Below are positions 4,433-22,081 of a stretch of DNA of 24,000 nt, in pieces. This stretch comes from an uncultured beta proteobacterium. GTDB lineage: Bacteria > Pseudomonadota > Gammaproteobacteria > Burkholderiales > Burkholderiaceae_C. Location of the stretch: contig CAWJZE010000001.1 of assembly GCA_963847265.1 (NCBI GenBank), positions 1,545,056 through 1,569,055 on the forward strand. The letters run 5' to 3'. The position numbers and the translations under genes were made by a program. The notes beneath the pieces were generated by a model. That model made no database searches. It was not told the origin of the DNA and worked only from the letters and a program-made list of their open reading frames with translations. Within the stretch, counting starts at the first letter, position 1; every line of letters starts with the position of its first letter.

Positions 4433-6511
<2,079 letters not shown>

Positions 6512-6674: not shown

Positions 6675-7400
6675 CTACTTTTTTCCGATCCCGAGGTAGG
6701 TGTCGATGATCCGCCGGTCGTGCAGCAACTCGCGCGCCGGGCCACTGAGTGCGACGGCGCCCATCTCCAGCACGTAGCCGCGGTCGGCCACCTGCAGCGC
6801 GGCGCGGGCGTTCTGCTCGACCAGCAGCACCGAGACGCCGTGCTGGCGCAAGGACGACACCACCTGCAGCACCTCGCGCACGATCAGCGGCGCCAGGCCG
6901 AGCGAGGGCTCGTCGAGCATCAGCAGGCGTGGGCGCGCCATCAGCGCGCGGCCGATCGCCAGCATCTGGCGCTCGCCGCCCGACAGCGTCGAGGCCAGCT
7001 GCGCGCGGCGCTCGCGCAGGCGCGGGAAGATCTGGAACACCTCGTCCATGCGCGCGCGCTGGTCGCGCTGGCCCTTGCGCCAGCGGTAGAAGCCGCCCAG
7101 CAGCAGGTTGTCCTCCACCGGCATGTCGCCGAACAGCTCGCGCTTCTCGGGCACCAGCGCCACGCCGCGCGCCACCATGGTCTCGACGCTCGGGCGCGCG
7201 ACGCGCTCGCCCGCCAGCGTGGCGACGCCGCGCGAGGGCAGCAGGCCCATGGCGGCGCACAGCAGCGTGGTCTTGCCCGCGCCGTTGGGGCCGATCACGG
7301 TGACGATCTCGCCTTCGGCGACGTCGAGCGCCACCTGGTGCACGGCCTCGACTGCGCCGTAGGAAACGCAGAAGTCTTCCAGCTTGAGCAAAGGAGTCAC
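6675..7400 (-). CDS. livF: Branched-chain-amino-acid-type ABC transporter ATP-binding protein (LivF class)
   Basis: [45 protein letters not shown] (Walker A), LSGGERQMLAIGRAL (signature), LLMLDEPSLGLAP (Walker B). Apparent GTG start at 7400. Confidence 0.9.
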   Translation of the reverse strand: MTPLLKLEDFCVSYGAVEAVHQVALDVAEGEIVTVIGPNGAGKTTLLCAAMGLLPSRGVATLAGERVARPSVETMVARGVALVPEKRELFGDMPVEDNLLLGGFYRWRKGQRDQRARMDEVFQIFPRLRERRAQLASTLSGGERQMLAIGRALMARPRLLMLDEPSLGLAPLIVREVLQVVSSLRQHGVSVLLVEQNARAALQVADRGYVLEMGAVALSGPARELLHDRRIIDTYLGIGKK

Positions 7401-7510
7401 AGAAGCCTCGCAGGCAGAGTGTCGATTTCACATGAACCGCCGCGCACCGCCGATCGCCGTCGAACCACGCTTTGCCCGCATGCCATGAAACACATGCGCC
7501 TCCTTCGGGA

Positions 7511-7600
7511 AACACCGCGGAACCGGCTTTGCCGGGCCGCTGGTGTTGCCCTCGGTGAGGGGGTGGGCGAAGCGACACGAAGTGCGCGCAGCCTGGGGGT
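7511..7600 (-). repeat. Intercistronic three-hairpin repeat, copy B (between livM::livG and livF)
   Basis: aacaccgcggaaccggctttgccgggccgctggtgttgccctcggtgagggggtgggcgaagcgacacgaagtgcgcgcagcctgggggt. In the transcribed sense it begins 5 nt after the livM::livG stop codon (7606..7608). Confidence 0.8.
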
Positions 7601-7605
7601 GAGCC

Positions 7606-9501
7606 TCATTCCACGCCTCCCAGGTAGGCGTCGAGGACCCGCTGGTTGGCCTGCACCTCGGCCGGCGTGCCCTCGGCGATCACGGTGCCGAATTCGAGCA
7701 CGGTGATGCGGTCGGCCAGGTTCATGACGAACTCCATGTCGTGCTCCACCACCAGGATGCCCAGCCCCTCGGCGCGCAGCTGGCCGAGCAGCGCAGCCAG
7801 CGCGCCCTTCTCCAAGTGGCGCAGACCGGCGGCCGGCTCGTCGAGCAGCAGCACGGCCGGCTGCCCGGCCAGCGCGCGCGCGATCTCGACGATGCGCTGC
7901 TGGCCCAGCGCCAGCGACGCGGCGGGCGCGTCGGCATGCGCGCCGAGGCCGACGCGCTCGATCTGGCGGCGCGCCTCGGCCAGCAGGGCCGCTTCCTCGC
8001 CGCGGTCGAGCCGCAGCATCGAGGCGATCCAGCCGCGGTGCGCGCGGCGGTGCGCGCCGAGCGCCACGTTCTCGACCACGCTGCGCTGCCCCAGGAGCCG
8101 CACGTGCTGGAAGGTGCGGCCCAGCCCGAGCGCGGCGAAGGCGCGCGAGGGGCGGTTCTGCATCGGCTGGTCCATCAGCCGCACCTCGCCCGCGCTGGTG
8201 TCGTCCACCCCCGAGATCATGTTAAAGAAGGTGCTCTTGCCGGCGCCGTTGGGCCCGATCAGCGCGTGCACCTCGCCCGCCTTGACGTTCAGGGTGACGG
8301 CGTTGTTGGCGACCAGCCCGCCGAAGCGCTTGGTCACGGCGTCGGCCTGCAGCAGCACCCGGCCCGCGGGCGGCAGCGCGCGCTGCGCCAGCGCGGCGCT
8401 GGCCTTTCGGGCCGCGCGCACCGGGGCGGGGCGCAGCAGGGGCGCGCTCCAGCGCTGCAGCGTCGGCCACAGCCCGGCGGCGAAGCGCTGCAGCACCACC
8501 AGCATCAGGAGGCCGAACACGATCACCTCGAAGTTGCCGCTGGTGCCCAGCAGCGCCGGCAGGATGTCCTGCAGCTTCTCCTTCAGCAGCGTGATCAGCG
8601 TGGCGCCCAGCACCGCGCCCCACAGGTGGCCGGCGCCGCCGACCACCGCCATGAACAGGTACTCGATGCCGATGTTGAGGTTGAAGGGCGTCGGGTTGAT
8701 GAAGCGCTGCAGGTGCGCGTAGAGCCAGCCCGAGAGCGCCGCCAGCAGCGCCGCCAGCACGAACAGCTTGACGCGGTAGCGCGCGGTGTCCACGCCCATC
8801 GATTCGGCCATGACGCGGCCGCCGCGCAGCGCGCGGATGGCGCGCCCCTCGCGCGAGTCGAGCAGGTTGTGCAGCAGCCACAGCGCCATGAACAGCACCG
8901 CCCAGATGACGACGCCGAGCGCGCGCGCCGAGGTCAGCGACCAGCCCGCGACGACCAGCGGCGGCACGCCGGTGATGCCGGTCTGCCCGCCCAGGAAGTC
9001 CATGTTGCCGAACAGGTAGTACAGGCTCAGGCCCCAGGCGATGGTGGCGAGCGGCAGGTAGTGGCCCGAGAGCTTGACCGTCACGGCGCCCAGCACCCAG
9101 GCGATGGCGAAGGTCAGCGCCAGCCCGAGCGCCAGCCCGACCCAGGGCAGCCCGGCCGGGCCGACCCAGCCGCCGAGCGCGGCGACCGGCCCCGGCGCGG
9201 TGCAGACCCACGCCGTGGCGTAGGCGCCGACGCCGACAAAGGCGGCCTGCCCGAAGGAGGTCATGCCGCCGACGCCGGTGAGCATCACCAGCCCGGCCGC
9301 GACCAGCGCGTACAGCCCGATGTAGCTCATCACGATGACGGTGAACTCCGGCAGCCATGGCCAGGCCAGCGCCAGCGCCGCGACGGCGGCGAGCGTGAGC
9401 TGGCGGCGCGTCAGCAGGCCACGCGGCGTGGCTGCGGCCTCGGCGGGCGGGGCCGCGGCGCGGTCGCCGGGGGCCAGGGTGCGATCGACGGGCGCGCTCA
9501 T
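7606..9501 (-). CDS. Fused ABC transporter permease (LivM-like) and ATP-binding protein (LivG-like)
   Basis: The N-terminal ~360 aa is polytopic membrane sequence (…[17 protein letters not shown]…[33 protein letters not shown]…). The C-terminal half is an ABC ATPase ([49 protein letters not shown]; Walker A about 8230..8256; [10 protein letters not shown]). The start ATG at 9501 overlaps the livH stop as ATGA (9498..9501), so I prefer it to the listed 9546. Confidence 0.85.
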
Positions 9502-10529
9502 TCCTCGTCCTCCTCGACGTGGTGGCTGCGCAGCGACCGCCACCACAGCACCGGGATGATCAGCGTGAACACCAGCACCTCCTTAAAAGCGCTGGCCCAG
9601 AAGGACGAGAACGATTCGAGCTGGCCGACCAGCAGCGCGCCGGCCAGCGCCGCCGGGTAGCTCGCCAGCCCGCCGACGATGGCCGCGACGAAGCCCTTCA
9701 GGCCGATCAGGAAGCCGGTGTCGTAGTACACGGTGGTGAGCGGCGCGATCAAGAGGCCCGAGACGGCCCCGATCAACGCCGCCAGCGCGAAGCTGAGGTC
9801 GCCCGAGAGCTCCGTCGGGATGCCCATCAGCCGGGCGCCGACGCGGTTCATGGCGGTGGCGCGCAGCGCCTTGCCGACCATCGAGCGCTCGAAGAACAGG
9901 AACAGCAGCGCCACCAGCGCGAGCGTGACGCCCAGCACCACCAGCGACTGGCCCGTCACCGGCAGGCCGCCCAGGTCGAAGCGCGCGTCGGAGAACGCCG
10001 GCGTGCGCGAGCCCTCGGCGCCGAAGAACAAGAGCCCCAGCCCGACCAGCACCCCGTGCAGCGCGACCGAGACGATCAGGAGGATCAGCACGCTGGCGTT
10101 GGCCAGCGGCCGGAACGCGAGGCGGTAGAGCAGCGGCCCGAGCGGCGTGATGAGCACCACGGTGGCGAGCGCCTGGCCGGCCAGCGAGGCCGGGCGCCAG
10201 CCGAGCACCAGCGCGCAGGCCGCGAGCGGCAGCGCCACGCACCAGGCGAGCGCGGCGGGCCAGTCCACGGTCGCGCCGCGCTTCCAGCGCCAGGCCTCGA
10301 CCAGCAGGGCCAGGCACGCCAGCACCAGCAGCAGCCACAGCGTGGCGGGCACGCGGCCGGCCTGCAGCATCGCCATCGACAGCGCGCCGAAGGTGACGAA
10401 CTCGCCCTGCGGGATGAAGATGACGCGGGTGACCGAAAACACCAGCACCAGCGCCACGGCCATCAGCCCGTAGACCGCCCCGTTGACGATGCCGTCCTGC
10501 CCCAGCAGCAGGGCGATCTGTGAATCCAT
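9498..10529 (-). CDS. livH: ABC transporter permease (LivH class)
   Basis: [50 protein letters not shown]… is a typical LivH N-terminus, and the protein is polytopic throughout. The acidic tail HHVEEDEE ends at TGA 9498..9500. Confidence 0.9.
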
Positions 10530-10622
10530 GGCGAACCTTTTGTTCGGGCCAGGCCCGTTTCATTCCAAGTCAGCAGCTCAACCTCACCTCACCTGACGCC
10601 CACCGCGCTGTCCCCTTCCAGG

Positions 10623-10713
10623 AACACCGCGGATCCGGCTCCGCCGGGCCGCTGGTGTTGCCCCCTGCAAGGGGGTGGGCGAAAGCGACACGCAGTGCGC
10701 GAAGCCTGGGGGT
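10623..10713 (-). repeat. Intercistronic three-hairpin repeat, copy C (between the SBP gene and livH)
   Basis: aacaccgcggatccggctccgccgggccgctggtgttgccccctgcaagggggtgggcgaaagcgacacgcagtgcgcgaagcctgggggt. Its last base is the first base of the SBP stop codon complement (tta 10713..10715). Confidence 0.8.
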
Positions 10714-11858
10714 TAGGGTTGATACTTCCAGGCCCCGTTCTCGATCTTGACCATGACGCGGGCGCGCTGGTCGAGCCCCAGGTGGTCGGTCGGCGACATC
10801 GTGAACACGCCGTGCGCGCCCGGCACCTCCTTGACCTGCTCCAGCGCATCGCGCAGCGCGGCACGGAACTCGGGCGTGCCGGGCTGCGCCTTCTTGAGCG
10901 CCACGGGAATCGCCGCCGTCATCAGCAGCCCGGCGTCCCAGGCGTGGCCGCCGAAGGTCGAGACGCTGCCCTTGCCGTAGGCCGCCTCGTAGGCCTTGAC
11001 GTAATCCGTGGCGGATTTCTTGACCGGGTTCGACGCCGGCAGCTGGTCGGCCACCAGCACCGGGCCGGCCGGCAGGAAGGTGCCTTCGACATCCTTGCCG
11101 CCCACGCGCAGGAAGTCGCCGTTGGCCACGCCGTGGGTCTGGTAGATCTTGCCGGCGTAGCCGCGCTCCTTGAGCGCCTTCTGAGGCAGCGCCGCCGGGG
11201 TGCCCGAGCCGGCGATCAGCACCGCGTCGGGCTTGGCCGCGATCAGCTTCAGCGTCTGGCCGGTGACCGAGGTGTCGGTGCGGCTGTAGCGCTCGTTGGC
11301 GACGATCTGCAGGTGCTTCAGCGCCGCGGCCTTGGCGAATTCCTGGTACCAGCCCTCGCCGTAGGCGTCCGAGAAGCCGATGTAGCCGACCGTCTTGACC
11401 CCGGCCTTGGCCATGTGGTCGGCGATGGCGAGCGACATCATGATGTCGTTCTGCGGGGTCTTGAAGACCCACTTCTTCTTGTCGTCCATCGGCTCGACGA
11501 TGCGCGCCGAGGCGGCCATCGAGATCATGGGCGTCTTCGCCTCCGACACCACGTCGACCATGGCGAGCGAGTTGGGCGTGACGGTCGAGCCGAGGATGAT
11601 GTCGGCCTTGCTCTCGCTGATGAGCTTGCGCGTGTCGGCCACTGCGGTGGTGGTGTCGGAGGCGTCGTCGAGCACGATGTAGTTGATCTTCTGCCCGCCG
11701 ATGGTCTTGGGCATCAGCGCGATCGTGTTCTTCTGCGGAATGCCGAGCGAGGCGGCCGGGCCGGTCGTCGAGATGACGACGCCGACGTTGACGTCGGCCT
11801 GCGCCGCGAGCGCGGCGGCGCACAGGGCGGCGAACAGCAGGGAAGCGCGGAATTTCAT
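10713..11858 (-). CDS. Periplasmic substrate-binding protein, Liv/type-I PBP family (candidate aromatic-acid binder)
   Basis: Start MKFRASLLFAALCAAALAAQA|DVNVGVVISTTGPAASLGIPQ, a Sec signal with AQA cleavage, preceded by ggagagacaacaATG. It has the type-I PBP fold signature throughout. The listed ORF running to 12437 is an upstream extension across the paaE 3' end. Confidence 0.9.
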   Translation of the reverse strand: MKFRASLLFAALCAAALAAQADVNVGVVISTTGPAASLGIPQKNTIALMPKTIGGQKINYIVLDDASDTTTAVADTRKLISESKADIILGSTVTPNSLAMVDVVSEAKTPMISMAASARIVEPMDDKKKWVFKTPQNDIMMSLAIADHMAKAGVKTVGYIGFSDAYGEGWYQEFAKAAALKHLQIVANERYSRTDTSVTGQTLKLIAAKPDAVLIAGSGTPAALPQKALKERGYAGKIYQTHGVANGDFLRVGGKDVEGTFLPAGPVLVADQLPASNPVKKSATDYVKAYEAAYGKGSVSTFGGHAWDAGLLMTAAIPVALKKAQPGTPEFRAALRDALEQVKEVPGAHGVFTMSPTDHLGLDQRARVMVKIENGAWKYQP

Positions 11859-11995: not shown

Positions 11996-13084
11996 TCAGC
12001 GTTCGTCGAACGACAGCACCACGCGCTCGGTCAGCGGGTGCGCTTGGCAGGTCAGCACGAAGCCGCTGGCGACCTCTTTCCTGTCGAGCGCGAAGTTGCG
12101 CTCCATGCGCACCTGGCCCTCGATCACCTTGGCGCGGCAGGTGCCGCACACGCCCGAGGTGCACGAATACGGCACCTCCAGCCCGGCGGCCGAGGCCGCG
12201 TCCAGGATGCTCGGCTGGCCCTTGGCGAACGGAATCTCGCGCTGCAGCCCGTCGCGCACGATGACGATGCGGGCCTGCTCGGCGTCTTCCGGCCGGGCCT
12301 CGTGCACCACGGCGTCGACCCGCTGGCCGGCGGCCTGCAGCGCGACGCCGAAGCGCTCGATGTGAATGCGCTCCTCGGGCACGCCGGCGGCCAGCAGCGC
12401 GGCTTCGGCCTCGTCGTTCATCTGGAACGGGCCGCACACGTACACCTCGTCGATCTGCCCGGCCGGCACCGGGCCGGCCAGGAACTCGCCGATCTTCTCG
12501 CGGTTCATCACGCCGTGGTTGAGCGGCGCGTCGGTGTGCTCGTCGGAGAACACGTACTGCAGCACCAGGCGCGTCATGTAGCGGTTCTTCAGGTCCTCGA
12601 TCTCTTCCTTGAACATGGTCGAGCGCAGCGCGCGGTTGCCATAGATCAAGGTGAAGCGGCTGTGCGGCTCGCGCGCGAGCACCGTCTTCATGATCGAGAG
12701 GATCGGCGTGATGCCGCTGCCGCCGGCGATGCCGACGTGGTGGCGCCGCGCGGCCGCGTCGAGCGGCACGAAGAAGCGGCCCTGCGGCGCCATCACCTGG
12801 ACCGTGTCGCCGGGCCTGAGGTGCGCGTTGATCCAGTTGGAGAACACGCCGCCGTTGACCTTGCGCACCCCCACGCGCAGCTCGCCGTCGTCCACGCCGG
12901 CGCAGATCGAGTAGGAGCGGCGCAGGTCCTGCCCGTCGATGTCGGTGCGCAGCGTGAGGTACTGGCCCTGCGTGAAGCCGAACACGTCGCGCAACTCGGG
13001 CGGCACGTCGAACGAGACGACGACGGCCTCGGGCGTGTCGGGCTCGATCGCGCGCACGCGCAGCGGGTGGAAGATGACGCTCAT
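11996..13084 (-). CDS. paaE: Phenylacetyl-CoA 1,2-epoxidase reductase subunit (FNR-like domain + plant-type 2Fe-2S)
   Basis: MSVIFHPLRVRAIEPDTPEAVVVSF…RRSYSIC…GIAGGSGITPILSI…C-terminal YSCTSGVCGTCRAKVIEGQV. Collinear with E. coli PaaE as recalled. Confidence 0.9.
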   Translation of the reverse strand: MSVIFHPLRVRAIEPDTPEAVVVSFDVPPELRDVFGFTQGQYLTLRTDIDGQDLRRSYSICAGVDDGELRVGVRKVNGGVFSNWINAHLRPGDTVQVMAPQGRFFVPLDAAARRHHVGIAGGSGITPILSIMKTVLAREPHSRFTLIYGNRALRSTMFKEEIEDLKNRYMTRLVLQYVFSDEHTDAPLNHGVMNREKIGEFLAGPVPAGQIDEVYVCGPFQMNDEAEAALLAAGVPEERIHIERFGVALQAAGQRVDAVVHEARPEDAEQARIVIVRDGLQREIPFAKGQPSILDAASAAGLEVPYSCTSGVCGTCRAKVIEGQVRMERNFALDRKEVASGFVLTCQAHPLTERVVLSFDER

Positions 13085-13155
13085 GGGCAGCTCCGGTGGA
13101 AGAGGTCGGTCGATGGAGCGGGTGGGCGCATCGGCAAAGAAAGAAAAAGGCGCCG

Positions 13156-13677
13156 TCAGATCGGCTTGAAGTGCTCGAAGGGCTCGCGGCAGGCCCGGCA
13201 GCGATAGAGCGCCTTGCAGGCGGTCGAGCCGAAGGCCGACAGCCGCTCGGTGTCCGGGCTGCCGCAGCGCGGGCAGGCCGGCTGGCCGGCGTCGGCGCGG
13301 CGTCCGACGATGCGGATCGGAACGCCCCGGGCGGGGTCCACCGCGCCGGGCGGCGCGATGCCGTATTCGGCGAGCTTGCGGCGCCCCTCGGCGCTGATCC
13401 AGTCGGTGGTCCAGGCCGGCGCGCGGCGCAGCGTGACGCGCGCCGGGCCCAGCCCCGCGGCGACGAGGGCGGCCAACACGTCGTGCTCGATCACCTCGGT
13501 GGCGGGGCAGCCGGAGTAAGTCGGCGTCAGCACGACCTCCAGCCCCCCGTCGTCGTGCTCGACCACGTCGCGCACGATGCCTAGGTCGCGCACCGATACC
13601 GCCGGCACCTCGGGGTCGAGTACCGTGCCCAGCACCTCCCAGGCAGCGTCGGCCCGCGCGCCACCCTCGATCACCAT
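13156..13677 (-). CDS. paaD: Phenylacetyl-CoA epoxidase subunit PaaD
   Basis: DPEVPAVSVRDLGIVRDV…TPTYSGCPATEVIE…APAWTTDWISAEGRRKLAEYGIAPP…CPRCGS…FGSTACKALYRCRACREPFEHFKPI, closely matching E. coli PaaD. The ATG at 13677 overlaps the paaC stop (ATGGTGA). Confidence 0.85.
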   Translation of the reverse strand: MVIEGGARADAAWEVLGTVLDPEVPAVSVRDLGIVRDVVEHDDGGLEVVLTPTYSGCPATEVIEHDVLAALVAAGLGPARVTLRRAPAWTTDWISAEGRRKLAEYGIAPPGAVDPARGVPIRIVGRRADAGQPACPRCGSPDTERLSAFGSTACKALYRCRACREPFEHFKPI

Positions 13678-14450
13678 ACCCCTCCCGGGAAGGTCCGCTG
13701 CAGGTATTGCATGTCGGTCAGGATGTAGCCCATGTGCTCGCTGTGGCGCCCGCGCTTGCCGTCGCTGCGAAAGGCCGCGTCGGCCGGCGGCGCGAGCCCG
13801 GCGTCGGCCAGGATGGCCTGCATCTCCGAGCGCCACGCCGGTTCGAGCGCTGACCACAGCGGCCCCAGGCCCGCGGCGTGCGCTGCCTCGTCCACCGCGT
13901 CGGTGTCGAACAGCTCCGGCACGTAGAGCCACAGCTGGCGCAGCGCGGCCTCCATGCGCTGGCGCGATTCGGCCGTGCCGTCGCCCAGCCGCGCCACCCA
14001 GTCGGCCGCGTGCTGCTGGTGGTAGCGCGCCTCCTTGACGGCCTTGCCGGCGATGCCCGCGAGCTCGGCGTCGCCGGAGGACGACGCCAGCCGCTCCCAC
14101 AGCAGCTTGAGCAGCGTGGCGACCATCGCGTTGCGCAGCACCGTGACCGCGAAGTCGCCGCGCGGCAACTCGACCAGCGTGAAGTTGAAGTAGTCGCGCT
14201 CGTTGCGCAAAAAGGCGAGCTGGTCCTCGTCGTGCTGCTCGCGGCCTTCGAGCTGGCCGGCGCGCGTGAGCACGGCGCGCGCCTGACCGATCAGGTCCAG
14301 CGCCATGTTGGCCAGGGCGATGTCCTCCTCCAGGATGGGCGCGTGGCCGCACCACTCGCCCAGGCGCTGCGCCAGGATCAGGCAGGTGTCGCCGATGCGC
14401 AGCAGGTACTGCACCTCGGGCGTGCGGTCGAGTTCGATGGAGCCTTGCAT
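13671..14450 (-). CDS. paaC: Phenylacetyl-CoA epoxidase structural subunit PaaC
   Basis: MQGSIELDRTPEVQYLLRIGDTCLILAQRLGEWCGHAPILEEDIALANMALDLIGQARA… and the C-terminal HSEHMGYILTDMQYLQRTFPGGVW match E. coli PaaC. Start chosen at 14450, 19 nt after the paaB stop. Confidence 0.85.
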   Translation of the reverse strand: MQGSIELDRTPEVQYLLRIGDTCLILAQRLGEWCGHAPILEEDIALANMALDLIGQARAVLTRAGQLEGREQHDEDQLAFLRNERDYFNFTLVELPRGDFAVTVLRNAMVATLLKLLWERLASSSGDAELAGIAGKAVKEARYHQQHAADWVARLGDGTAESRQRMEAALRQLWLYVPELFDTDAVDEAAHAAGLGPLWSALEPAWRSEMQAILADAGLAPPADAAFRSDGKRGRHSEHMGYILTDMQYLQRTFPGGVW

Positions 14451-14469
14451 CGTGGGCCTTTTCTTGCAG

Positions 14470-14907
14470 TCACATGTGGTCAACGGCCGGGGGCAGCGCG
14501 TAGAAGGTGGGGTGGCGGTACACCTTGTCCTCGGCCGGGTCGAAGTACATGGCCTTGTCGCCCGGGTCGCTCGCCACGATCTGGTCGGAGCGCACCACCC
14601 AGATGCTGCTGCCCTCCTGGCGGCGGGTGTAGACGTCGCGTGCCATCTGCACGGCCATCTTCGGGTCGGCGGCGTGCAGGCTGCCGCAGTGCTTGTGGTC
14701 GAGGCCGGCCTTGCTGCGCACGAACACCTCCCACAGCGGCCACTCGGCCTTGTCGGGAATGCCGTGGCCGGCCTGGGCCGCAGACGTGGCGGGCGCCGTG
14801 GGCGTGGCGGGATCGGGAGCGGACGCGGTGGTGGCGAGGGTAGCGGCCGGCTTGTCCAGCTCCACGGGGGTTTTGGAAGCGCCCGGCGGCAGGGGAGGGG
14901 CGCTCAT
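14470..14907 (-). CDS. paaB: Phenylacetyl-CoA epoxidase subunit PaaB with a ~50-aa Pro/Ala/Thr-rich N-terminal extension
   Basis: The conserved core [58 protein letters not shown]…[14 protein letters not shown] matches E. coli PaaB (95 aa). The only ATG upstream of the core is at 14907, overlapping the paaA stop as ATGA (14904..14907). Confidence 0.8.
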
Positions 14908-15926
14908 GCTGCACGCTCCATTGGCACCGTGTTGTTGTCGCGCTTGGCCGCGTACGCCAGCGCCGCCTCGCGCACCCAGGCGCCGTCCTCCCAGGCCTTG
15001 ACGCGCGCGGCCAGGCGCTCGCGGTTGCACGGGCCGTCGCCGCCCACCACGCGCCAGAACTCGCTCCAGTCGATGGCGCCGAAGTCCCAGCAGCCGCGCG
15101 CCTCGTTCCATTTCAGGTCGGGGTCGGGCAGGGTGACGCCGAGAATCTTCGCCTGCTCGACCGTGGCGTCGATGAACTTCTGGCGCAGCTCGTCGTTGGA
15201 GACGCGCTTGATGCCCCAGCGCATCGACTGCGCCGAGTTGGGCGACTGGTCGTCGGGCGGGCCGAACATCATGATCGAGGGCCACCACCAGCGGTCGACG
15301 GCGTCCTGCACCATGGCCTTCTGCGCGTCGGTGCCGTGCGTCATCATGGTCAGCAGCGCCTCGTAGCCCTGGCGCTGGTGGAAGCTCTCCTCGCGGCAGA
15401 TGCGGATCATGGCGCGGGCGTAGGGCGCGTACGAGCAGCGGCAGATCGGCACCTGGTTCATGATCGCCGCGCCATCGACCAGCCAGCCGATCACGCCCAT
15501 GTCGGCCCAGGAGAGCGTCGGGTAGTTGAAGATCGAGCTGTACTTGGCCTTGCCGCTGTGCAGGGCGTCGAGCAGCTGGTCGCGCGAGGTGCCGAGCGTC
15601 TCGGCCGCCGCGTAGAGGTACAGGCCGTGGCCGCCCTCGTCCTGCACCTTGGCCAGCAGGATGGCCTTGCGCTTCAAGGTGGGCGCGCGCGTGATCCAGT
15701 TGCCCTCGGGCAGCATGCCGACGATCTCGGAATGCGCGTGCTGGCTGATCTGGCGCACCAGCGTCCTGCGGTAGTGCTCGGGCATCCAGTCCTTGGCCTC
15801 GATGAAGTCGCCCGCGTCGATGCGGGCGTCGAAGCGTTCCTCGAGGACCATTTCCTCGGCCGAGCGCACCGCCTTGCGGGCGTCGCCGGGCTCCTTGCCC
15901 ATCGTGTCCATGGCTTGCGTGTACAT
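14904..15926 (-). CDS. paaA: Phenylacetyl-CoA 1,2-epoxidase catalytic (di-iron) subunit
   Basis: [54 protein letters not shown]…[32 protein letters not shown]…[11 protein letters not shown] is near-identical in blocks to E. coli PaaA. The start at 15926 is preceded by caggagaaagcaccATG. Confidence 0.9.
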
Positions 15927-15945
15927 GGTGCTTTCTCCTGAGTCG

Positions 15946-15991
15946 GGGCGCCGCGGCGCCCGGGGGTTGGACCGGCCCTGCCGCCGGCAGG
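15946..15991. other. Two GC-rich palindromes in the 67-bp pac-paaA spacer
   Basis: GGGCGCCGCGGCGCCC (15946..15961) is a perfect 16-bp palindrome. CCTGCCGCCGGCAGG (15977..15991) has 7-bp arms around one central base. Neither is followed by a U-tract. They may be RNA hairpins or a protein-binding site; function unknown. Confidence 0.3.
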
Positions 15992-15993
15992 TT

Positions 15994-18492
15994 TCAGTAC
16001 CTGAGCTGGCGGGTCGATTCGACGTGCGGGGCAAGCTGCGCCGGCGTCAGCCACTCGTCCTTGCAGCCGAAATCCCTGAACAGCGCCATCTGGTCGCCGT
16101 AATGCGGCGCCTTGCGGCCGTCGGGCGCCACGAAGCCGCTCTGGCCGGGCGGCGCCGCCGTGCACATCGAGACGCCGCCGCCGGCGCCGAAGACGATCTT
16201 GTCGTTCTGCGTGCCGCGGTTCATGAAGCTCGGCAGCTTCAGCAGTTCGTCGGCACCGGCCTGCGGCGCGCCCATGAAGTTGCTGGTCAGAAAGGCATGG
16301 GGCGTGACGGGCGTGAGCCAGGTGCGTGTGTCGCTGCCGAACCGGGCCGTCAGCTGGGCCATGGCCTGCGCCAGCGTGGCGCGCAGCACCGCGCCCGGGT
16401 CCTCGCCGTTGAAGAAGTCGTGGGTCTGCGGCACGCCGGCCTTCGGGCCGAGCAAGGCGTTGTAGACCAGCTTGGTCCCGTTGCCGGGCCGGATGCTGGC
16501 GACCTGCGGGCTGCCCGCGTAGCCGGCCCCCGCGTACGCCGCGAACACCTCGGGCGGCAGGTCGTCGGCCAGTACCCGCTGGTAGAGGATGGGCAGCCAG
16601 GTCATCATGAGCGTCGTGGCCGGGCTCTGGTAGGTGCCGCGCGCCTGCGGGTCGTCGTTGAGCCCGTTCCAGTCCGCGAACAGCTGCGCGGCGCGGCGCG
16701 CCGGGTCGCTGGCGGGCAGGCCGCGGGTGGCGTCGAAAACGAACGGAACGAGGTAGCGCGCGTTGGTGTCGGCGTAGGCGCTGGTGCGCACCAGCCCCCA
16801 GAGCTCCTCGGGCGCCAGCCGGGGCTTGCCCTGGAGCCGGGCGATGAGCTCGTTGACCCGGTCGGCCGCGCCGTAGTTGCCGCCGTCGCTCACCGCGCCG
16901 GGGGCCGACTGGTTGTTCCAGTTGACGACGTAGCCCTGCGCCGGGTTGAGCACCCGCGGGTCCTCGCCGAACGGCCGGATGCCCTGCCATTCCATGGTCC
17001 CGTCGCCCAGCGCCGGCAGCCGGATGTCCTGCGCCGGCGGGCGGATCGGCAGGCGGCCGGGCGAGACGTAGCCGATGTTGCCCTTGGCGTCGGCGTAGTA
17101 CCAGTTGATGGTGGTGGCCACGCGCGAGGCCTGCTTCAGCCATTCGTCCCAGGTGCCGGCCTGCATGGAGTGGATCCAGCCCAGCATGGATTCGAGCTCG
17201 TGGCCGTCCCAGCTGCGCTTCATCGAGTAGGCGGTGCCGTTGGGCAGGTCGAAGTCGGTCACGGTGCCGTGCACGGTCGCGTAGAGGTCCAGGCGCTGGT
17301 CGGGCTGGCCCTTGACGCGGATCGTCTCGGTGCGCCGGGTCATCGGGCGCATCGCGCCGTTGAACAGGTAGCGGTGCGGGTCCGCCGGGTCGAGCTTCTC
17401 CTGGTACATGTCGTTGACGTCCAGCGGCCCCGCCGTGGAGCCCCAGGCGATCCTGCCGTTGGTGCCGAACAGCACCACGGGGTAGGCGAACGGCGTGTTG
17501 CCGGTCACGTCGTAGCCCGCGCCGTGCAGGCCGATGCCGAACACGTACGAGGGGTTGAACCAGTTGAACTGCGGGCCGTTGACGAGGACGGTGCTGCCGT
17601 CGGTGGTTTTCTGCGGCCCGGCGATCCAGAGGTTGCTGGCGACCGGCCGCTCCCAGGGCTGGGCCGCGCCGCGCCGCGCCGCATCGGCTTCGCTGCGGGC
17701 GACCAGCAGCTCGGGCGAGACCGGTGCCAGGTGCGCCAGCGGGTCGCCGGGGGTCGCGGCGGGTTGCGCGTCGGCCAGCGGCCGGCCGGAGGCGCCGGTG
17801 CGCGGCACGGTGGTCGGCGCCAGCGGGTCCTCGATCCAGCGGATCTGGTCGAACAGCTGCCGGCCCGCCACGTCGCCCCTGGCTTGCTGGAGCTGCTTGA
17901 GCAGCCGCAGGTTGGCGACCTCGCTGCTGGTGTTGGAGTAGCGGTTGGCCATGGTGCCGATCCAGATCATCGCCACGTCGTAGCCGGTCCAGTCGGCCCG
18001 GGGCTCGAAGCCCGCGTCGATGAACTCCCTGGGCAGCAGCGTGCCCTTGTCGGCCAGCACTTCGTTCACGCGCGCGTTGAAGCCCGCCGCGTAGCCGTCG
18101 AAGATGGCCCGGTCGTCAGGCCCGAGCCGCGCCATCTGGGCCTGGATCGAGGCCGGCACGAAGGCCGAGCGGCTCGTCCTGTCGAGCGCCAGGTAGGCCG
18201 GGCCCATCACCTCGGAGACGGTGCCGAGCACCGAACGCCGCGCCATCTCCATCTGGAACAGCCGGTCCTCGGCGACCACGTAGCCGTAGCCGTGGAACAG
18301 CCCGCGCACATCGTTCGCGTACACGTGCGGCACGCCGTAGCTGTCGCGCCGGATGGTGAGGCTCGACCCGGCAGCGCCAGTCCCGGCGGTCGTCGCCGGC
18401 GGCGTCGAAGGCATCGGCGAGGTCGCGCAACCCGCCAGGACGACGAGAGCGGCGCAGAGGGCGCCCAGGTTTTTCTTCGACAGCGGTTTCAT
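15994..18492 (-). CDS. pac: Penicillin G acylase family Ntn-hydrolase (phenylacetyl-amide amidohydrolase), predicted lipoprotein
   Basis: 832 aa. The beta-chain start [71 protein letters not shown] closely matches E. coli PGA (SNMWVIG…[34 protein letters not shown]). The nucleophile Ser is codon 286 (17635..17637). The N-terminus [22 protein letters not shown] has a lipobox (Cys22, 18427..18429). Confidence 0.9.
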
Positions 18493-18537
18493 CGGGGACT
18501 GCGGGGTGGGGTGACGGTGGACGTCGGAAGCCGGCGC

Positions 18538-19851
18538 TCAGCGCGGCCGCGTATCGACCACGCGACGCGCCTTGCCGGTCTGCGTGCGCTCGATGGCATC
18601 CGGGTCGAACACGCGCACCTGCGTCGAGATGCCGACCAGCGTCTTGATGCGGTGCTGCAGCCAGGCGGCGATCTCGGCGCGCTCGGCTTCGGCGGCACCG
18701 GTGGCCGGGCGCAGCTCGCAGTGCACCTCGACCTGATCGAGCGCGCCCTCGCGCCGCACGTGCACCTGGTAGAGCCCCGACAGCCTGGGGTGCGCCAGCA
18801 CGATCTCCTCGATCTGCGTCGGGAACACGTTGACGCCGCGGATGATCATCATGTCGTCGCTGCGCCCGACGATCTTGCCCATGCGCCGGAACGCGCGCGA
18901 GGTCGGCGGCAAGAGGCGCGTCAGGTCGCGCGTGCGGTAGCGCACGACGGGCATCGCCTCCTTGGTGAGCGAGGTGAAGACCAGCTCGCCCTCCTGGCCG
19001 TCGGGCAGCACCTCGCCGGTGTCGGGGTCGATGATCTCGGGGTAGAAGTGGTCCTCCCAGATCACCGGGCCGTCCTTGCTCTCGACGCACTCGCTCGCCA
19101 CGCCCGGGCCCATGACCTCCGACAGGCCGTAGATGTCCACCGCGTCGATGCCGGCCCGGGCCTCGATGTCGCGGCGCATGGCCTCGGTCCACGGCTCGGC
19201 GCCGAAGATGCCGACTTTCAGCGAGCTCTCGCGCGCGTCGAGCCCCTGGCGCGCGAACTCCTCGCAGATCACCTGCATGTAGCTGGGCGTCACCATGATG
19301 ATGTCGGGCTGGAAGTCCCGGATCAGCTGCACCTGCTTCTCGGTCTGGCCGCCCGACATGGGCACCACCGTGCAGCCGGCGCGCTCGGCGCCGTAGTGCG
19401 CGCCCAGGCCGCCGGTGAACAGGCCGTAGCCGTAGGCCACGTGCACCATGTCGCCGGGCCGCCCGCCCGCCGCGCGGATCGAGCGCGCCACCAGCGCGGC
19501 CCAGGTGTCGATGTCGTTTTTCGTGTAGCCCACCACGGTCGGTTTGCCGGTGGTGCCCGAGGAGGCGTGGATGCGCGCCAGCTGCGCGCGCGGCACCGCC
19601 AACAGGCCGAACGGGTAGTTGTCGCGCAGGTCGCTCTTGACGGTGAACGGGAACCTGGCCAGGTCGGACAGCTGCTTCAGGTCGCCCGGCTGGACGCCCC
19701 TGGCGTCGAACGCCCGGCGGTAGTGCGGCACGTGGTCGTAGGCGCGCTGCAGCGTCGCGCGCAGGCGCTGCAGCTGCAGCGCGGCGATCTCGTCGCGGCT
19801 GGCGGTTTCGATCGGCTCCAGGTCGCCGGGGGCGGGATGCTTGACGGGCAT
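18538..19851 (-). CDS. paaK: Phenylacetate-CoA ligase
   Basis: MPVKHPAPGDLEPIETASRDEIAALQLQRLRATLQRAYDHVPHYRRAFD…IHASSGTTGKPTVVGYT…VTPSYMQVICEE…IYGLSEVMGPGVA…GRSDDMMIIRGVNVFP. At 437 aa it is the same length as E. coli PaaK. The listed ORF to 19941 is an upstream extension. Confidence 0.9.
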   Translation of the reverse strand: MPVKHPAPGDLEPIETASRDEIAALQLQRLRATLQRAYDHVPHYRRAFDARGVQPGDLKQLSDLARFPFTVKSDLRDNYPFGLLAVPRAQLARIHASSGTTGKPTVVGYTKNDIDTWAALVARSIRAAGGRPGDMVHVAYGYGLFTGGLGAHYGAERAGCTVVPMSGGQTEKQVQLIRDFQPDIIMVTPSYMQVICEEFARQGLDARESSLKVGIFGAEPWTEAMRRDIEARAGIDAVDIYGLSEVMGPGVASECVESKDGPVIWEDHFYPEIIDPDTGEVLPDGQEGELVFTSLTKEAMPVVRYRTRDLTRLLPPTSRAFRRMGKIVGRSDDMMIIRGVNVFPTQIEEIVLAHPRLSGLYQVHVRREGALDQVEVHCELRPATGAAEAERAEIAAWLQHRIKTLVGISTQVRVFDPDAIERTQTGKARRVVDTRPR

Positions 19852-19879
19852 GGGATTCCTGTGGCGGAGGGCGGCGCGC

Positions 19880-20341
19880 TCAGGTCGGGGCCACGACCGG
19901 CTTGCCCCTGAGGGTGTGGGAGCGGCCGCGGAACACGGCAATGCGTGCGCCGCGCTGGTTGGTCACTTCGGTGTCGTAGACGCCCGTGCGCCCGGTCTTC
20001 GACACCTCGGCGCAGCGCGCGGTGAGCAGGTCGCCCAGGTGCGCCGGCGCGATGAAGTCGATGGCGAAGGCCGAGGCGACCGTCACCTCGTTGTACGAGT
20101 TGCAGGCGAAGGCGAAGGCCGAGTCGGCCAGCGCGGCGATGAAGCCGCCGTGGCAGGTCTCGTGGCCGTTGAGCATGTCCTCGCGCACCGGCATGGTGAT
20201 GGTGGCGCTGCCGGGCGCGATGGCGACCAGGCGCATGCCCAGGGCCTGGGTGGCGCGATCGTTGCGCCACATGCCCTCGCCGACCAGGTCGGCGGTGTGC
20301 TGCGGCGACAGCTCGGTGGCGGGCGCGTGAGATCCGGACAT
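19880..20341 (-). CDS. paaI: Hotdog-fold acyl-CoA thioesterase PaaI
   Basis: …MPVREDMLNGHETCHGGFIAALADSAFAFACNS… is the PaaI signature. The ATG at 20341 lies 5 nt after a GGAGG that immediately follows the paaG stop (TGAGGAGGccgtgATG). Confidence 0.85.
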   Translation of the reverse strand: MSGSHAPATELSPQHTADLVGEGMWRNDRATQALGMRLVAIAPGSATITMPVREDMLNGHETCHGGFIAALADSAFAFACNSYNEVTVASAFAIDFIAPAHLGDLLTARCAEVSKTGRTGVYDTEVTNQRGARIAVFRGRSHTLRGKPVVAPT

Positions 20342-20351
20342 CACGGCCTCC

Positions 20352-21134
20352 TCAGCGGTCGCTGAAGCGCGGGGCGCGCTTGTGGCGGAAGGCGTCCACG
20401 CCTTCGAGGTAGTCGTGCGCGCCGCCCAGGCGGGTCTGCAGGCGCGCCTCGTGCGCCAGCGCCGCGTCCAGGTCCATGCCCTGGGCGGCGGCCAGCGCCT
20501 GCCGCGTCGCGACCAGCGCCTGCGTCGGCATGGCGGCCAGGCGGGTGGCGAGCGCCGCCGCCGTGGGTTCGAGCGCCGCGTCGTCCACGCACTGCCAGAT
20601 CAGGCCGATCTGCGCCGCCTCGGCCGCCGGCAGCTTCTCGCCCAGCAGGGCCAGGCCCAGCGCGCGGGCGTGGCCGACCAGCCGCGGCAGCAGCCAGGTG
20701 CCGCCGGTGTCGGGCACCAGCCCGATCTTCGAGAAAGCCTGGATGAAGCTGGCCGAGCGCGCCGCCACCACCAGGTCACAGCACAGCGCCAGGTTGGCGC
20801 CGGCGCCGGCCGCCACGCCGTTGACGGCCGCGACCACCGGCACCGGCATCGAGCGCACGCGCTCGACCAGTGGGCGGTAGTGCGCCTCGATCAGCGCCCC
20901 CAGGTCCTGCCCGGGCGCCGCGGCCGGGTCCGACAGATCCTGCCCGGCGCAGAAGGCGCGGCCGGCGCCGGTCAGCACCACGCAGCGCACCGCCTCGTCG
21001 CCCGCCGCACGGTCGAGCGCGGCGAGCAGTTCCGCGTGCATCGCCGTGGTGAAGCTGTTCATGGCGGCCGGCCGGTTCAGCGTGAGCGTGGTCACGCCGC
21101 CGGAGTGGCTCGCCAGGATCAGGGGGTCGGACAT
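20352..21134 (-). CDS. paaG: 1,2-epoxyphenylacetyl-CoA isomerase (crotonase family)
   Basis: MSDPLILASHSGGVTTLTLNRPAAMNSFTTAMHAELLAALDRAAGDEAVRCVVLTGAGRAFCAGQDLSD…VAAVNGVAAGAGANLALCCDLVVAARSASFIQAFSKIGLVPDTGGTWLLPRLVG is collinear with E. coli PaaG. It is the first gene of the minus-strand cluster. Confidence 0.85.
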   Translation of the reverse strand: MSDPLILASHSGGVTTLTLNRPAAMNSFTTAMHAELLAALDRAAGDEAVRCVVLTGAGRAFCAGQDLSDPAAAPGQDLGALIEAHYRPLVERVRSMPVPVVAAVNGVAAGAGANLALCCDLVVAARSASFIQAFSKIGLVPDTGGTWLLPRLVGHARALGLALLGEKLPAAEAAQIGLIWQCVDDAALEPTAAALATRLAAMPTQALVATRQALAAAQGMDLDAALAHEARLQTRLGGAHDYLEGVDAFRHKRAPRFSDR

Positions 21135-21199: not shown

Positions 21200-21213
21200 A
21201 CCGACCGGACGGT
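21200..21213. promoter_or_regulatory. Candidate TetR-type PaaR operator, ACCGACCGGACGGT
   Basis: An imperfect palindrome of form ACCG-N2-CG-N2-CGGT, with 12 of 14 positions self-complementary. It lies in the paaG/paaR divergent region, 2 nt downstream (operon sense) of the candidate -10 box. The core resembles the PaaR operator pattern I recall from Corynebacterium (from memory, unverified). Confidence 0.4.
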
Positions 21214-21215
21214 AG

Positions 21216-21245
21216 ATTTTAGGATGACGCAGATCGGGCTCGCAA
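21216..21245 (-). promoter_or_regulatory. Candidate sigma-70 promoter of the paa cluster
   Basis: Read on the minus strand: TTGCGA (21245..21240), an 18-nt spacer, then TAAAAT (21221..21216), about 80 nt upstream of the paaG ATG. Pattern match only. Confidence 0.3.
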
Positions 21246-21445: not shown

Positions 21446-22081
21446 ATGGCGCGCGGAAGATCGGCCACCTACGACGACCAGCGCGAGCTGATCCTGCAGC
21501 ATGCGGCGCAGCTGTTCGCGCGGCGCGGCTATCCGGCCACCTCGATGAACCAGGTGGCCGAGGCCTGCGGCCTGTCGAAGGCCACGCTCTACCACTACTA
21601 CCGCGACAAGTACGACCTGCTGCTCAGCATCGCCGACGAGCACGTCTCGCGCCTGGCCGCGCTGGTCGCCGACGAGGACACGCCGCCCCTGCGCGGCGAG
21701 GCGCGGCTGCGCCAGCTCATCGGGCGCATCGTCATGGAGTACGCCCACGCGCAGGACGCGCACCGCGTGCTGACCGAGGACGTGCGCTTTCTGGAGGATG
21801 TCGACCGCGAGCGCGTGCTCGACAAGGAGCGCGCCGTGGTCGCCGGCTTCGCGCGCGCCGTGGCCGAGATGCGCCCCGGCGCGCCGGTCGCGCAGCTTGC
21901 CAAGCCGCTCACCATGCTGCTGTTCGGCATGGTCAACTGGATGTTCACCTGGATGCGCCCCGACGGCGAGCTCGACCACGCCGCGCTGGCGCCGATCGTG
22001 GCCGACCTGTTCATCGGGGGCGCCGGGGCGGTGCGGCTGCCGCGCGAGGCCGAGCCGGCCGGGTTGCCGCCTGTGGCCTGA
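21446..22081 (+). CDS. paaR: TetR/AcrR-family transcriptional regulator, likely the phenylacetyl-CoA-responsive repressor PaaR
   Basis: MARGRSATYDDQRELILQHAAQLFARRGYPATSMNQVAEACGLSKATLYHYYRDKYDLL is an N-terminal TetR HTH. The gene is divergent from paaG. No GntR-type paaX is present in the window. The listed ORF from 21197 is an unlikely N-terminal extension. Confidence 0.8.
   Translation: MARGRSATYDDQRELILQHAAQLFARRGYPATSMNQVAEACGLSKATLYHYYRDKYDLLLSIADEHVSRLAALVADEDTPPLRGEARLRQLIGRIVMEYAHAQDAHRVLTEDVRFLEDVDRERVLDKERAVVAGFARAVAEMRPGAPVAQLAKPLTMLLFGMVNWMFTWMRPDGELDHAALAPIVADLFIGGAGAVRLPREAEPAGLPPVA

Follow-up and report, generated by a model that had tools for sequence, protein, structure and literature searches.

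Penicillin G acylase (PGA) is among the most heavily used industrial enzymes, and the view of its natural role has rested mainly on a regulatory link, through PaaX, in Escherichia coli W. The E. coli gene, pac, is a separate locus, and its product, which carries a twin-arginine translocation (Tat)-type signal, is a soluble periplasmic enzyme. A role as scavenger for the phenylacetate (paa) pathway has long been proposed for PGA, which PaaX represses in E. coli (PMC9493321). Here we describe a pac gene (15994..18492; minus strand, as are all features below unless stated otherwise) that encodes a PGA-family precursor of 832 amino acids (aa) and lies within a paa operon, in a stretch of 24,000 nucleotides of DNA from an uncultured betaproteobacterium that we analysed as a whole (the window). 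Our analysis makes it likely that this gene encodes a genuine PGA-type N-terminal nucleophile (Ntn) hydrolase specific for phenylacetyl amides, which would be lipid-tethered, encoded by a PaaR-controlled operon and feeding the paa pathway. The window gene resembles that of E. coli W in family, in the signal-alpha-spacer-beta layout and in the catalytic and phenylacetyl-pocket residues of its product and, by prediction, in being repressed by a paa repressor that responds to phenylacetyl-coenzyme A (CoA) (PMC9493321 for E. coli). It differs in being an in-operon gene, in having a general secretory (Sec)/lipobox signal, in a Tyr at position a146 (residue numbering follows E. coli/Kluyvera PGA, a and b denoting the alpha and beta chains) and in its TetR-type regulator, PaaR, in place of the GntR-type PaaX.

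The PGA of Alcaligenes faecalis has an ordinary cleaved signal peptide and a stabilising disulfide formed by Cys b492 and Cys b525. It is the best-scoring solved relative of the window protein (3K3W/3ML0; 532 bits, 45% identity over the beta chain) and shares with it Leu at b56, Pro at b71 and both of these Cys positions. Unlike window pac, it falls in a different half of a neighbour-joining (NJ) tree of beta subunits, built quickly and without support values, and its closest relative sampled, from Paenalcaligenes (L063), lacks both a PaaR motif and, within 10 kb, any paa genes. Attachment of the alpha-subunit N-terminus to a membrane, facing the periplasm, which we predict here, is known from TthPAC of Thermus thermophilus HB27 (PMC3461476); TthPAC is anchored in the inner membrane by its Tat signal helix, which stays uncleaved, and its preferred substrate is the aliphatic penicillin K, whereas a lipid on Cys22 and a phenylacetyl pocket are predicted for the window protein. 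On the regulatory side, the operator of Burkholderia cenocepacia PaaR, ACCGACCGGTCGGT, was established by mutagenesis and electrophoretic mobility shift assay, and phenylacetyl-CoA releases the repressor (PMC2770484; PMC9493321). As in that regulon (the paaABCDE, paaZ and paaH promoters), the window has a TetR-type gene in the cluster and an operator, one base off, at a core promoter; the genome-wide operator search in B. cenocepacia recovered only paa promoters and no acylase, whereas here a secreted acylase and an ATP-binding cassette (ABC) importer form part of one long operon. Finally, according to a published summary of Crofts et al. (2018), phenylacetate released by an amidase is consumed through the paa pathway in bacteria carrying the put operon, much as we propose here; as summarised there, put brings together a beta-lactamase with a major facilitator superfamily (MFS) transporter and amidases and is separate from paa, whereas the window has no credible beta-lactamase and its PGA lies inside paa.

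The pac open reading frame (ORF) is a real, intact gene rather than a chance ORF, because its frame bears the third-codon-position GC signature of a coding sequence (0.95-0.99, like the neighbouring genes, in a window of 71.8% GC; its overall GC3 of 0.97 is the genome's own codon bias) and because the Penicil_amidase profile PF01804 matches it from end to end (residues 46-820 of 832; 442.8 bits against a cut-off of 21.3, E = 4.5e-132). This search had been proposed as a check by an earlier, sequence-only reading of the same DNA, and the 443 bits bear out its family assignment, as do matches to PGA chains and an AlphaFold2 (AF2) model. The ATG is the first possible start, with no in-frame start further upstream. 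A 1372-aa ORF on the plus strand (15793-19911), antisense to pac and paaK, was rejected as a high-GC artefact, its third-position GC being only 0.6-0.7. The placement of pac on the operon strand between paaK and paaA, as first read, proved exact to the nucleotide: 45 nt separate it from the paaK stop (18538-18540) and 67 nt from the paaA ATG at 15926.

At the head of this operon, a single PaaR-type operator, ACCGACCGGACGGT (21200..21213, no strand), lies directly after the -10 element of a sigma-70-like promoter (TTGCGA-18-TAAAAT, 21216..21245, from a consensus scan) that faces paaG. It is the sole exact match to ACCGNNCGNNCGGT in the window and is one mismatch from the validated B. cenocepacia operator. 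Only two sigma-70-like sites were found between 10500 and 22200, both in the paaR-paaG spacer, and the consensus scans found neither a minus-strand terminator-like site nor an internal promoter-like site between paaG and paaE. These sites suggest that pac is part of a single transcript under PaaR control. We found neither another PaaR operator nor an internal promoter ahead of pac, of paaA, of the binding-protein gene or of paaZ; the one-mismatch sites are intragenic and occur at chance frequency. The pac-paaA intergenic region (15927..15993) holds two GC hairpins, CCTGCCGGCGGCAGG and GGGCGCCGCGGCGCCC, followed by a strong Shine-Dalgarno (SD) sequence (AGGAGA) for paaA. We considered these hairpins as a terminator, attenuator or regulatory RNA and rejected all three: they have no T tail, their folding is no better than that of shuffles (z = -0.03), the spacer has no Rfam match, and they are confined to the window and to L001, its closest relative, where the stems are slightly different.

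The source genome is not alone in having this arrangement. We scanned one genome per species, which yielded 274 relatives, and analysed the best 80 of the 274 loci. The closest relatives of the window are Variovorax, and the order paaG-paaI-paaK-pac-paaABCDE-ABC recurs in 11 loci from Variovorax, Comamonas odontotermitis or metagenome-assembled genomes, and again in C. testosteroni and in one 7.15-Mb genome. The synteny survey suggested by the sequence-only reading thus found paaK-pac-paaA conserved in Variovorax and Comamonas. In the window, in the 11 genome loci and in L081 and L082, pac is co-oriented and contiguous with the paa genes, with short gaps, and both its position and an SD-less leader (see below) are kept across genera at 66-85% protein identity. 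The order is visible, unremarked, in public annotations, where the gene appears as 'penicillin acylase family protein', and in the searchable literature we found no account of a paa operon that contains an acylase.

Other lineages solve the same linkage differently. We found paaI-pac-paaK in Herbaspirillum, paaK-pac in Collimonas, paaABCDE-paaZ-pac in Amaricoccus, pac about 2.4 kb upstream of paaABCDE-paaZ in Paracoccus and Ensifer, and paaK-ABC-pac in an uncultured betaproteobacterium (L035). The pac-paa arrangements fall in separate clades of the NJ tree, and beyond the order seen in the window, at least four further arrangements in other lineages bring a PGA gene into a paa cluster. The two Herbaspirillum loci (L005, L009) are a case apart: their pac product is 75% identical to the window protein and nested inside the Variovorax clade, their PaaA is only 66-67% and their PaaK 73-74% identical, and pac sits between paaI and paaK. 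Because this pac nests among those of Variovorax and yet occupies another place in another paa operon, it was probably transferred horizontally by itself and then re-inserted.

The operator tells a parallel story. Every paaK-pac-paaA locus that reaches upstream of paaG has exactly one PaaR motif, upstream of paaG. In addition, searching within 300 nt upstream of pac, we found an exact ACCGNNCGNNCGGT motif before 15 pac genes located outside paa operons, either on their own or merely nearby; its distance upstream of the alignment start is 85-167 nt. The genes are those of V. robiniae, six Rhodococcus (including R. jostii and R. koreensis), six Paracoccus, Phyllobacterium and Ensifer (loci L013, L022-L026, L028, L048, L055, L057, L058, L064, L065, L071 and L079). 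These 15 sites in 23.5 kb compare with 0.36 expected from the motif density elsewhere in the loci (Poisson P ~1e-19), which suggests that PGA is a member of the PaaR regulon even where it is unlinked to paa genes. In the loci examined, the pac genes of Achromobacter, Marinobacter and Arthrobacter/Kocuria have neither paa neighbours nor a PaaR motif. The same is true of a subclade (L034, L037, L043, L053) with an altered pocket (aIle142, bGln24, bVal69, bSer/Ala71), which serves as a natural control and for which the changes suggest a different acyl specificity, whereas all paa-linked clades keep the A. faecalis-type pocket. Two genes for aromatic-acid-type binding proteins, together with an ABC importer, flank one member of this subclade, that of Variovorax sp. 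EL159 (L037).

Could the module instead be a device for catabolising or detoxifying benzylpenicillin, in which a beta-lactamase acts first and an amidase and the paa pathway follow in turn? Hydrolysis of penicillin G is what defines the enzyme family. In soil bacteria penicillin is broken down by way of benzylpenicilloate, with an amidase and the paa pathway taking part (Crofts 2018, as summarised in PMC11446756), and Paracoccus sp. KDSPL-02 converts penicillin G to penicilloic acid and then to phenylacetate (PMC8554860); Paracoccus genomes are moreover among those that carry pac with a PaaR motif near paaABCDE. In the window, a gene of the 'beta-lactamase' family PF00144 lies 118 nt beyond paaZ (3095-4315, plus strand), and we weighed it as the missing beta-lactamase. 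It was rejected in that role: its product has no signal peptide, the gene is convergent with the operon, and the best model is the esterase AcmB, itself under its cut-off, while the scores fall far under all class C beta-lactamase cut-offs. We take it for a probable cytoplasmic esterase or amidase that has nothing to do with pac. Nor is there a beta-lactamase or MFS gene beside pac in the conserved loci, and the spread of the paa link over ecologically diverse lineages is easier to reconcile with a widespread class of natural substrates than with a rare antibiotic. We therefore regard a dedicated penicillin pathway as unlikely, and return to the reading of pac as a phenylacetyl-amide hydrolase.

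The identity of the enzyme itself rests on its layout, its residues and a structural model. The junction RPVA/SNLWIAG places the nucleophile at Ser286 (codon 17637..17635, by arithmetic), and the alignments confirm the claim of the sequence-only reading that the protein is collinear with the E. coli enzyme, including the PVA/SNLW junction and the nucleophilic Ser. Residues 1-22 form a signal peptide with a lipobox (18427..18492; Cys22 codon 18429..18427), residues 23-43 a Pro/Thr/Ala/Gly-rich tether between Cys22 and the first alpha-subunit strand (18364..18426), residues ~44-235 the alpha subunit and ~236-285 the spacer (together 17638..18363, from alignments to the E. coli and Kluyvera alpha chains), and residues 286-832 the beta subunit (15997..17637, from alignments and the residue table). 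Mature PGA alpha chains align from residue 42-45, the alpha alignment spanning residues 42-231, and the beta-chain alignment starts exactly at Ser286; the precursor thus shows the order signal, alpha, spacer, beta, with Ser as the first beta residue. In known PGAs the spacer peptide is cut out by autoproteolysis.

Against solved structures, the beta subunit scores 492 bits with Providencia PGA and ~472 with E. coli PGA, after the A. faecalis enzyme (3k3w) given above, and identity over this chain is 41-42% to the enterobacterial PGAs (measured against Kluyvera and Providencia). More remote acylases score much lower (~250 bits for Bacillus PGAs, 192 for D-succinylase and ~98 for cephalosporin acylase). 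The catalytic and oxyanion residues bS1, bQ23, bA69, bN241 and bR263 are identical to those of characterised PGAs, as are eight of the ten phenylacetyl-pocket residues (set: aM142, aF146, bP22, bF24, bY31, bV56, bF57, bS67, bW154, bI177); the exceptions are aF146, which is Tyr185, and bV56, which is Leu, as also in the A. faecalis and P. rettgeri PGAs. In the alpha chain, aM142 (M181), aR145 (R184) and aE152 (E191) are all conserved, and of the Ca2+ site (aE152, bD73, bV75 carbonyl, bD76, bP205 carbonyl, bD252) aE152, bD73 and bD76 are kept. The AF2 model (predicted local distance difference test score, pLDDT, 74; predicted template modelling score, pTM, 0.79) superimposes its beta chain on the PGA structures 1cp9, 3k3w and 1pnk with template modelling (TM) scores of 0.89-0.91 and root-mean-square deviations (rmsd) of 2.6-3.2 Å; residues 1-41 are disordered in it (pLDDT ~30), and the spacer is likewise of low confidence or disordered. 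By these comparisons the pac product is a strict-sense PGA whose pocket is of the phenylacetyl type, rather than an N-acyl-homoserine lactone (AHL) or cephalosporin acylase.

The AHL acylases deserve a closer look, as a firm placement with the aliphatic members of that group was the outcome that the sequence-only reading had named as fatal to its proposal. In such a case the protein would primarily be a quorum-quenching enzyme acting on aliphatic or aryl AHLs such as phenylacetyl-homoserine lactone (HSL), and its place in the operon would reflect use of the acyl chain or be incidental. C6-C8 AHLs are side substrates of Kluyvera PGA, some Alphaproteobacteria use phenylacetyl-HSL as a natural signal, and an aryl-HSL substrate would suit both pocket and operon. 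AHL acylases such as PvdQ and MacQ also share with the pac product the Ntn-hydrolase superfamily and fold and the autoproteolytic alpha/beta maturation, predicted here, and Variovorax paradoxus grows on AHLs by means of an acylase that in 2017 was still listed without a known gene (PMC5474475). That placement did not occur, however. PGA chains match the window protein at 470-530 bits and PvdQ at 72, the NCBIfam PvdQ equivalog NF051460 gives 81 bits against a cut-off of 950, identity to PvdQ and MacQ is 17-20%, and the model beta chain fits PvdQ poorly (TM 0.63, rmsd 8.8 Å; ~0.6 for the two enzymes). The acyl pocket differs from theirs: it has the closed, aromatic form of PGAs and is identical to the pocket of the A. 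faecalis enzyme. The genomic and operator links point to phenylacetate catabolism, not fatty-acid catabolism. We accordingly rejected membership in the AHL acylases, and consider a primary role in quorum quenching very unlikely.

If pac encodes a phenylacetyl-amide hydrolase, its N-terminus bears on where it would act. Lys residues at positions 2, 6 and 7 precede an uncharged core and the lipobox L-A-G-C22, which fits a PROSITE-style rule (positive n-region, uncharged h-region, [LVI][ASTVI][GAS]C within the first 35 residues), and the translation holds no twin-arginine motif, in line with the earlier claim of a lipobox in place of a Tat-type signal. LAGC or AAGC stands at the same place in all Comamonadaceae orthologues, and the rule fits about 75 of the best 120 database relatives, the Arthrobacter and Kocuria types not fitting. 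Residues +2 to +4 after Cys22 are Ala-Thr-Ser, and the Pro/Thr/Ala/Gly linker that separates Cys22 from the first alpha-subunit strand is ~21 residues long; the mature alpha subunit would thus carry the lipid anchor. In the searchable literature we found no description of a lipoprotein anchor on a PGA, of a conserved SD-less pac leader or of PaaR operators before non-operon pac genes in three bacterial classes.

The paaK-pac intergenic leader (18493..18537) is C-rich, G-poor and weakly structured. The missing SD, already noted from the sequence, is borne out by a duplex energy with the anti-SD of +0.8 kcal/mol, compared with -3.2 to -12 kcal/mol for the rest of the genes in the operon. Among 13 orthologous loci there are 12 in which pac likewise lacks an SD (-2.5 kcal/mol or weaker) and has a leader of 8-20% G, while paaA carries a strong SD, AGGAG or GGAGG, in every one of them; the SD-less, G-poor leader is thus a conserved trait. 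Across orthologues the mean minimum free energy is -5.4 kcal/mol for the pac start region and -10.8 for the paaA start, about half, and of 200 shuffles of the window's 83-nt pac start region, 196 fold as well as the native sequence or better. A z-score test for an unusually unstructured pac start across orthologues was only weakly positive (mean z 0.66), because the low structure stems from the G-poor composition, which shuffling keeps. Where a start lies in an unstructured region, initiation is possible in the absence of an SD, and PGA matures slowly, by a process that is readily overloaded; for these two reasons the leader is probably a throttle on pac translation relative to the cytoplasmic enzymes. 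We give almost no credence to pac being a horizontally inserted passenger, poorly or not expressed and without a role in the operon: it lacks an SD and any anti-SD complementarity in its leader and has evidently moved between lineages, as the Herbaspirillum gene inside the Variovorax clade attests, but its ORF is intact and has the genome's own codon bias, all catalytic residues are retained, its position and SD-less leader persist across genera at the protein identities given above, and repeated independent linkage together with operator enrichment argues for selection.

Taken together, our comparisons indicate that the pac product is most likely a membrane-tethered, periplasm-facing phenylacetyl-amide hydrolase that feeds the paa pathway and is induced by phenylacetyl-CoA. 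Judging from sequence and family knowledge, the precursor would be exported by Sec, Cys22 would be lipid-modified, and the alpha subunit would be held by its flexible linker facing the periplasm, the outer membrane being the more likely anchoring site because residue +2 is Ala. Autoproteolytic maturation between Ala285 and Ser286, as in known PGAs, would yield the mature enzyme, whose pocket suggests that it frees phenylacetate from phenylacetylated amines in the periplasm; phenylacetyl-amino acids, benzylpenicillin or benzylpenicilloate and possibly aryl-acyl signals are conceivable substrates. Context and homology suggest that the aromatic-acid-type binding protein of the adjacent ABC importer would capture the phenylacetate, which would then enter the established pathway, in which PaaK joins it to CoA, PaaABCDE turns the ring into an epoxide, and PaaG and PaaZ carry out its processing and opening. 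The putative chain from release through import and CoA activation to ring attack, as drawn by the sequence-only reading, has gained support from the matches of the binding protein to presumed aromatic-acid binders, from the conserved synteny and from the PaaR-type operator at the operon head. Transcription would run in one operon, paaG-I-K-pac-ABCDE, and would probably extend past the importer genes into paaZ; it would start at the one promoter in the window with a PaaR-type operator. It would follow from this shared promoter that phenylacetyl-CoA induces pac: by releasing PaaR, whose binding we predict from the operator seen, it would derepress the operon, pac included, in a feed-forward loop, and the SD-less leader would keep the slowly maturing secreted lipoprotein low relative to the cytoplasmic enzymes.

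Several points weigh against this interpretation. The nearest characterised enzyme, A. faecalis PGA, is only 45% identical over the beta chain, and to our knowledge the branch that holds the window protein has no characterised member. In the Ca2+ site, the region of the ligand bD252 has a 3-residue deletion and aligns to Val. Position a146 is Tyr instead of Phe, b71 is Pro instead of Phe, and the leaving-group region b384-388 differs from that of E. coli PGA; because of these three differences, the preferred amine part of the substrate may not be that of the E. coli enzyme. The lipobox is a sequence pattern, by which lipidation is predicted rather than demonstrated, and the promoter, terminator and operator scans report consensus matches only, which leaves room for a weak internal promoter. 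The missing SD, finally, could equally mean that very little protein is made.

The other genes of the cluster were assigned one by one. Upstream of pac lie paaK, encoding phenylacetate-CoA ligase (18538..19851; TIGR02155, 718 bits, above cut-off), a gene for a paaI-like hotdog thioesterase (19880..20341; PF03061, conserved in position in the orthologous loci) and paaG, encoding the ring 1,2-epoxyphenylacetyl-CoA isomerase (20352..21134; an ECH_1 domain, and 338 bits to TIGR02280, just under its cut-off of 345). Divergent from paaG is paaR, for a TetR-family regulator (21446..22081, plus strand; PF00440 and PF17932), and a TetR gene is present in all related paa clusters. In L082 a hexapeptide-repeat (PaaY-like) gene stands between paaR and paaG, which the window lacks; the window also has no paaF, paaH or paaJ (the lower, beta-oxidation-like steps) and no paaY. 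Downstream of pac, paaABCDE (11996..15926; TIGR02156, TIGR02158, TIGR02159 and TIGR02160, with Pfam PaaB) encodes the phenylacetyl-CoA epoxidase, comprising paaA (14904-15926), paaB (14470-14907), paaC (13671-14450), paaD (13156-13677) and paaE (11996-13084). The paaB ATG overlaps the paaA stop (ATGA), and PaaB has a Pro/Ala/Thr-rich N-terminal extension of ~47 residues (14766-14907, minus strand), being 145 aa long compared with 98 aa in the L081 and L082 orthologues. Ring opening is assigned to paaZ, for an oxepin-CoA hydrolase/semialdehyde dehydrogenase (4433..6511; TIGR02278, 992 bits). PaaK, PaaA, PaaC, PaaD, PaaE and PaaZ pass their NCBIfam equivalog cut-offs, while PaaB, the thioesterase and the ABC system are Pfam matches.

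Between paaE and paaZ lies the Liv/HAAT-type ABC importer (6675..11858), whose presence downstream of pac had been anticipated and whose genes all have Pfam matches: a binding protein (10713-11858), a permease (9498-10529), a permease-ATPase fusion (7606-9501) and an ATPase (6675-7400). The second permease is fused to its ATPase in one 631-aa protein (BPD_transp_2, ABC_tran and BCA_ABC_TP_C) in all orthologous loci, and the importer genes adjoin paaE in all of them. The binding protein matches the Protein Data Bank entries 3sg0 and 4dqd at 412 and 404 bits and 3ukj, 3uk0, 3tx6 and 4jb0 at ~345 bits, compared with ~50 bits for Leu/Ile/Val binders; 3sg0, 4dqd and the other high-scoring entries are presumably Rhodopseudomonas aromatic-acid binders. 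At the far end of the window, an ORF on the plus strand (42-2519) with molybdopterin-cofactor-binding domains and several cytochrome c domains is similar to a subunit of a membrane-associated aldehyde or N-heterocycle dehydrogenase and probably continues beyond the start of the window.

Three independent genomic lines now support a scavenger role for PGA: the embedding of pac in a paa operon, its association with paa genes in at least four other arrangements, and operators of a different repressor family (PaaR) before pac genes outside paa operons in three bacterial classes. This comparative evidence supports the old idea that the natural job of PGA is to free phenylacetate from amides as food; the finding would not surprise specialists, yet the genomic support for a natural role of PGA is unusually strong. 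The lipoprotein-anchored, A. faecalis-like branch, with its natural Tyr at a146, may be of biocatalytic interest, and Comamonas testosteroni, Paracoccus denitrificans, Rhodococcus jostii and Variovorax are genetically tractable hosts for testing the substrate. More tentatively, and with real doubt, we suggest that the PGAs of the large, biochemically uncharacterised and mostly lipoprotein-type subclade that includes the window protein could be a dedicated front end of the phenylacetyl-CoA-sensing PaaR regulon in Actinobacteria, Alpha- and Betaproteobacteria, with phenylacetyl-amino-acid conjugates of hosts or plants as substrates; candidates would be the auxin conjugates of phenylacetic acid (PAA), PAA-Asp and PAA-Glu, in the rhizosphere, and phenylacetylglutamine and phenylacetylglycine of animal origin. 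If this were true, root-associated Variovorax would carry a self-inducing module to deconjugate, import and burn such compounds, and the decades-old question of what penicillin acylase is for would be settled.

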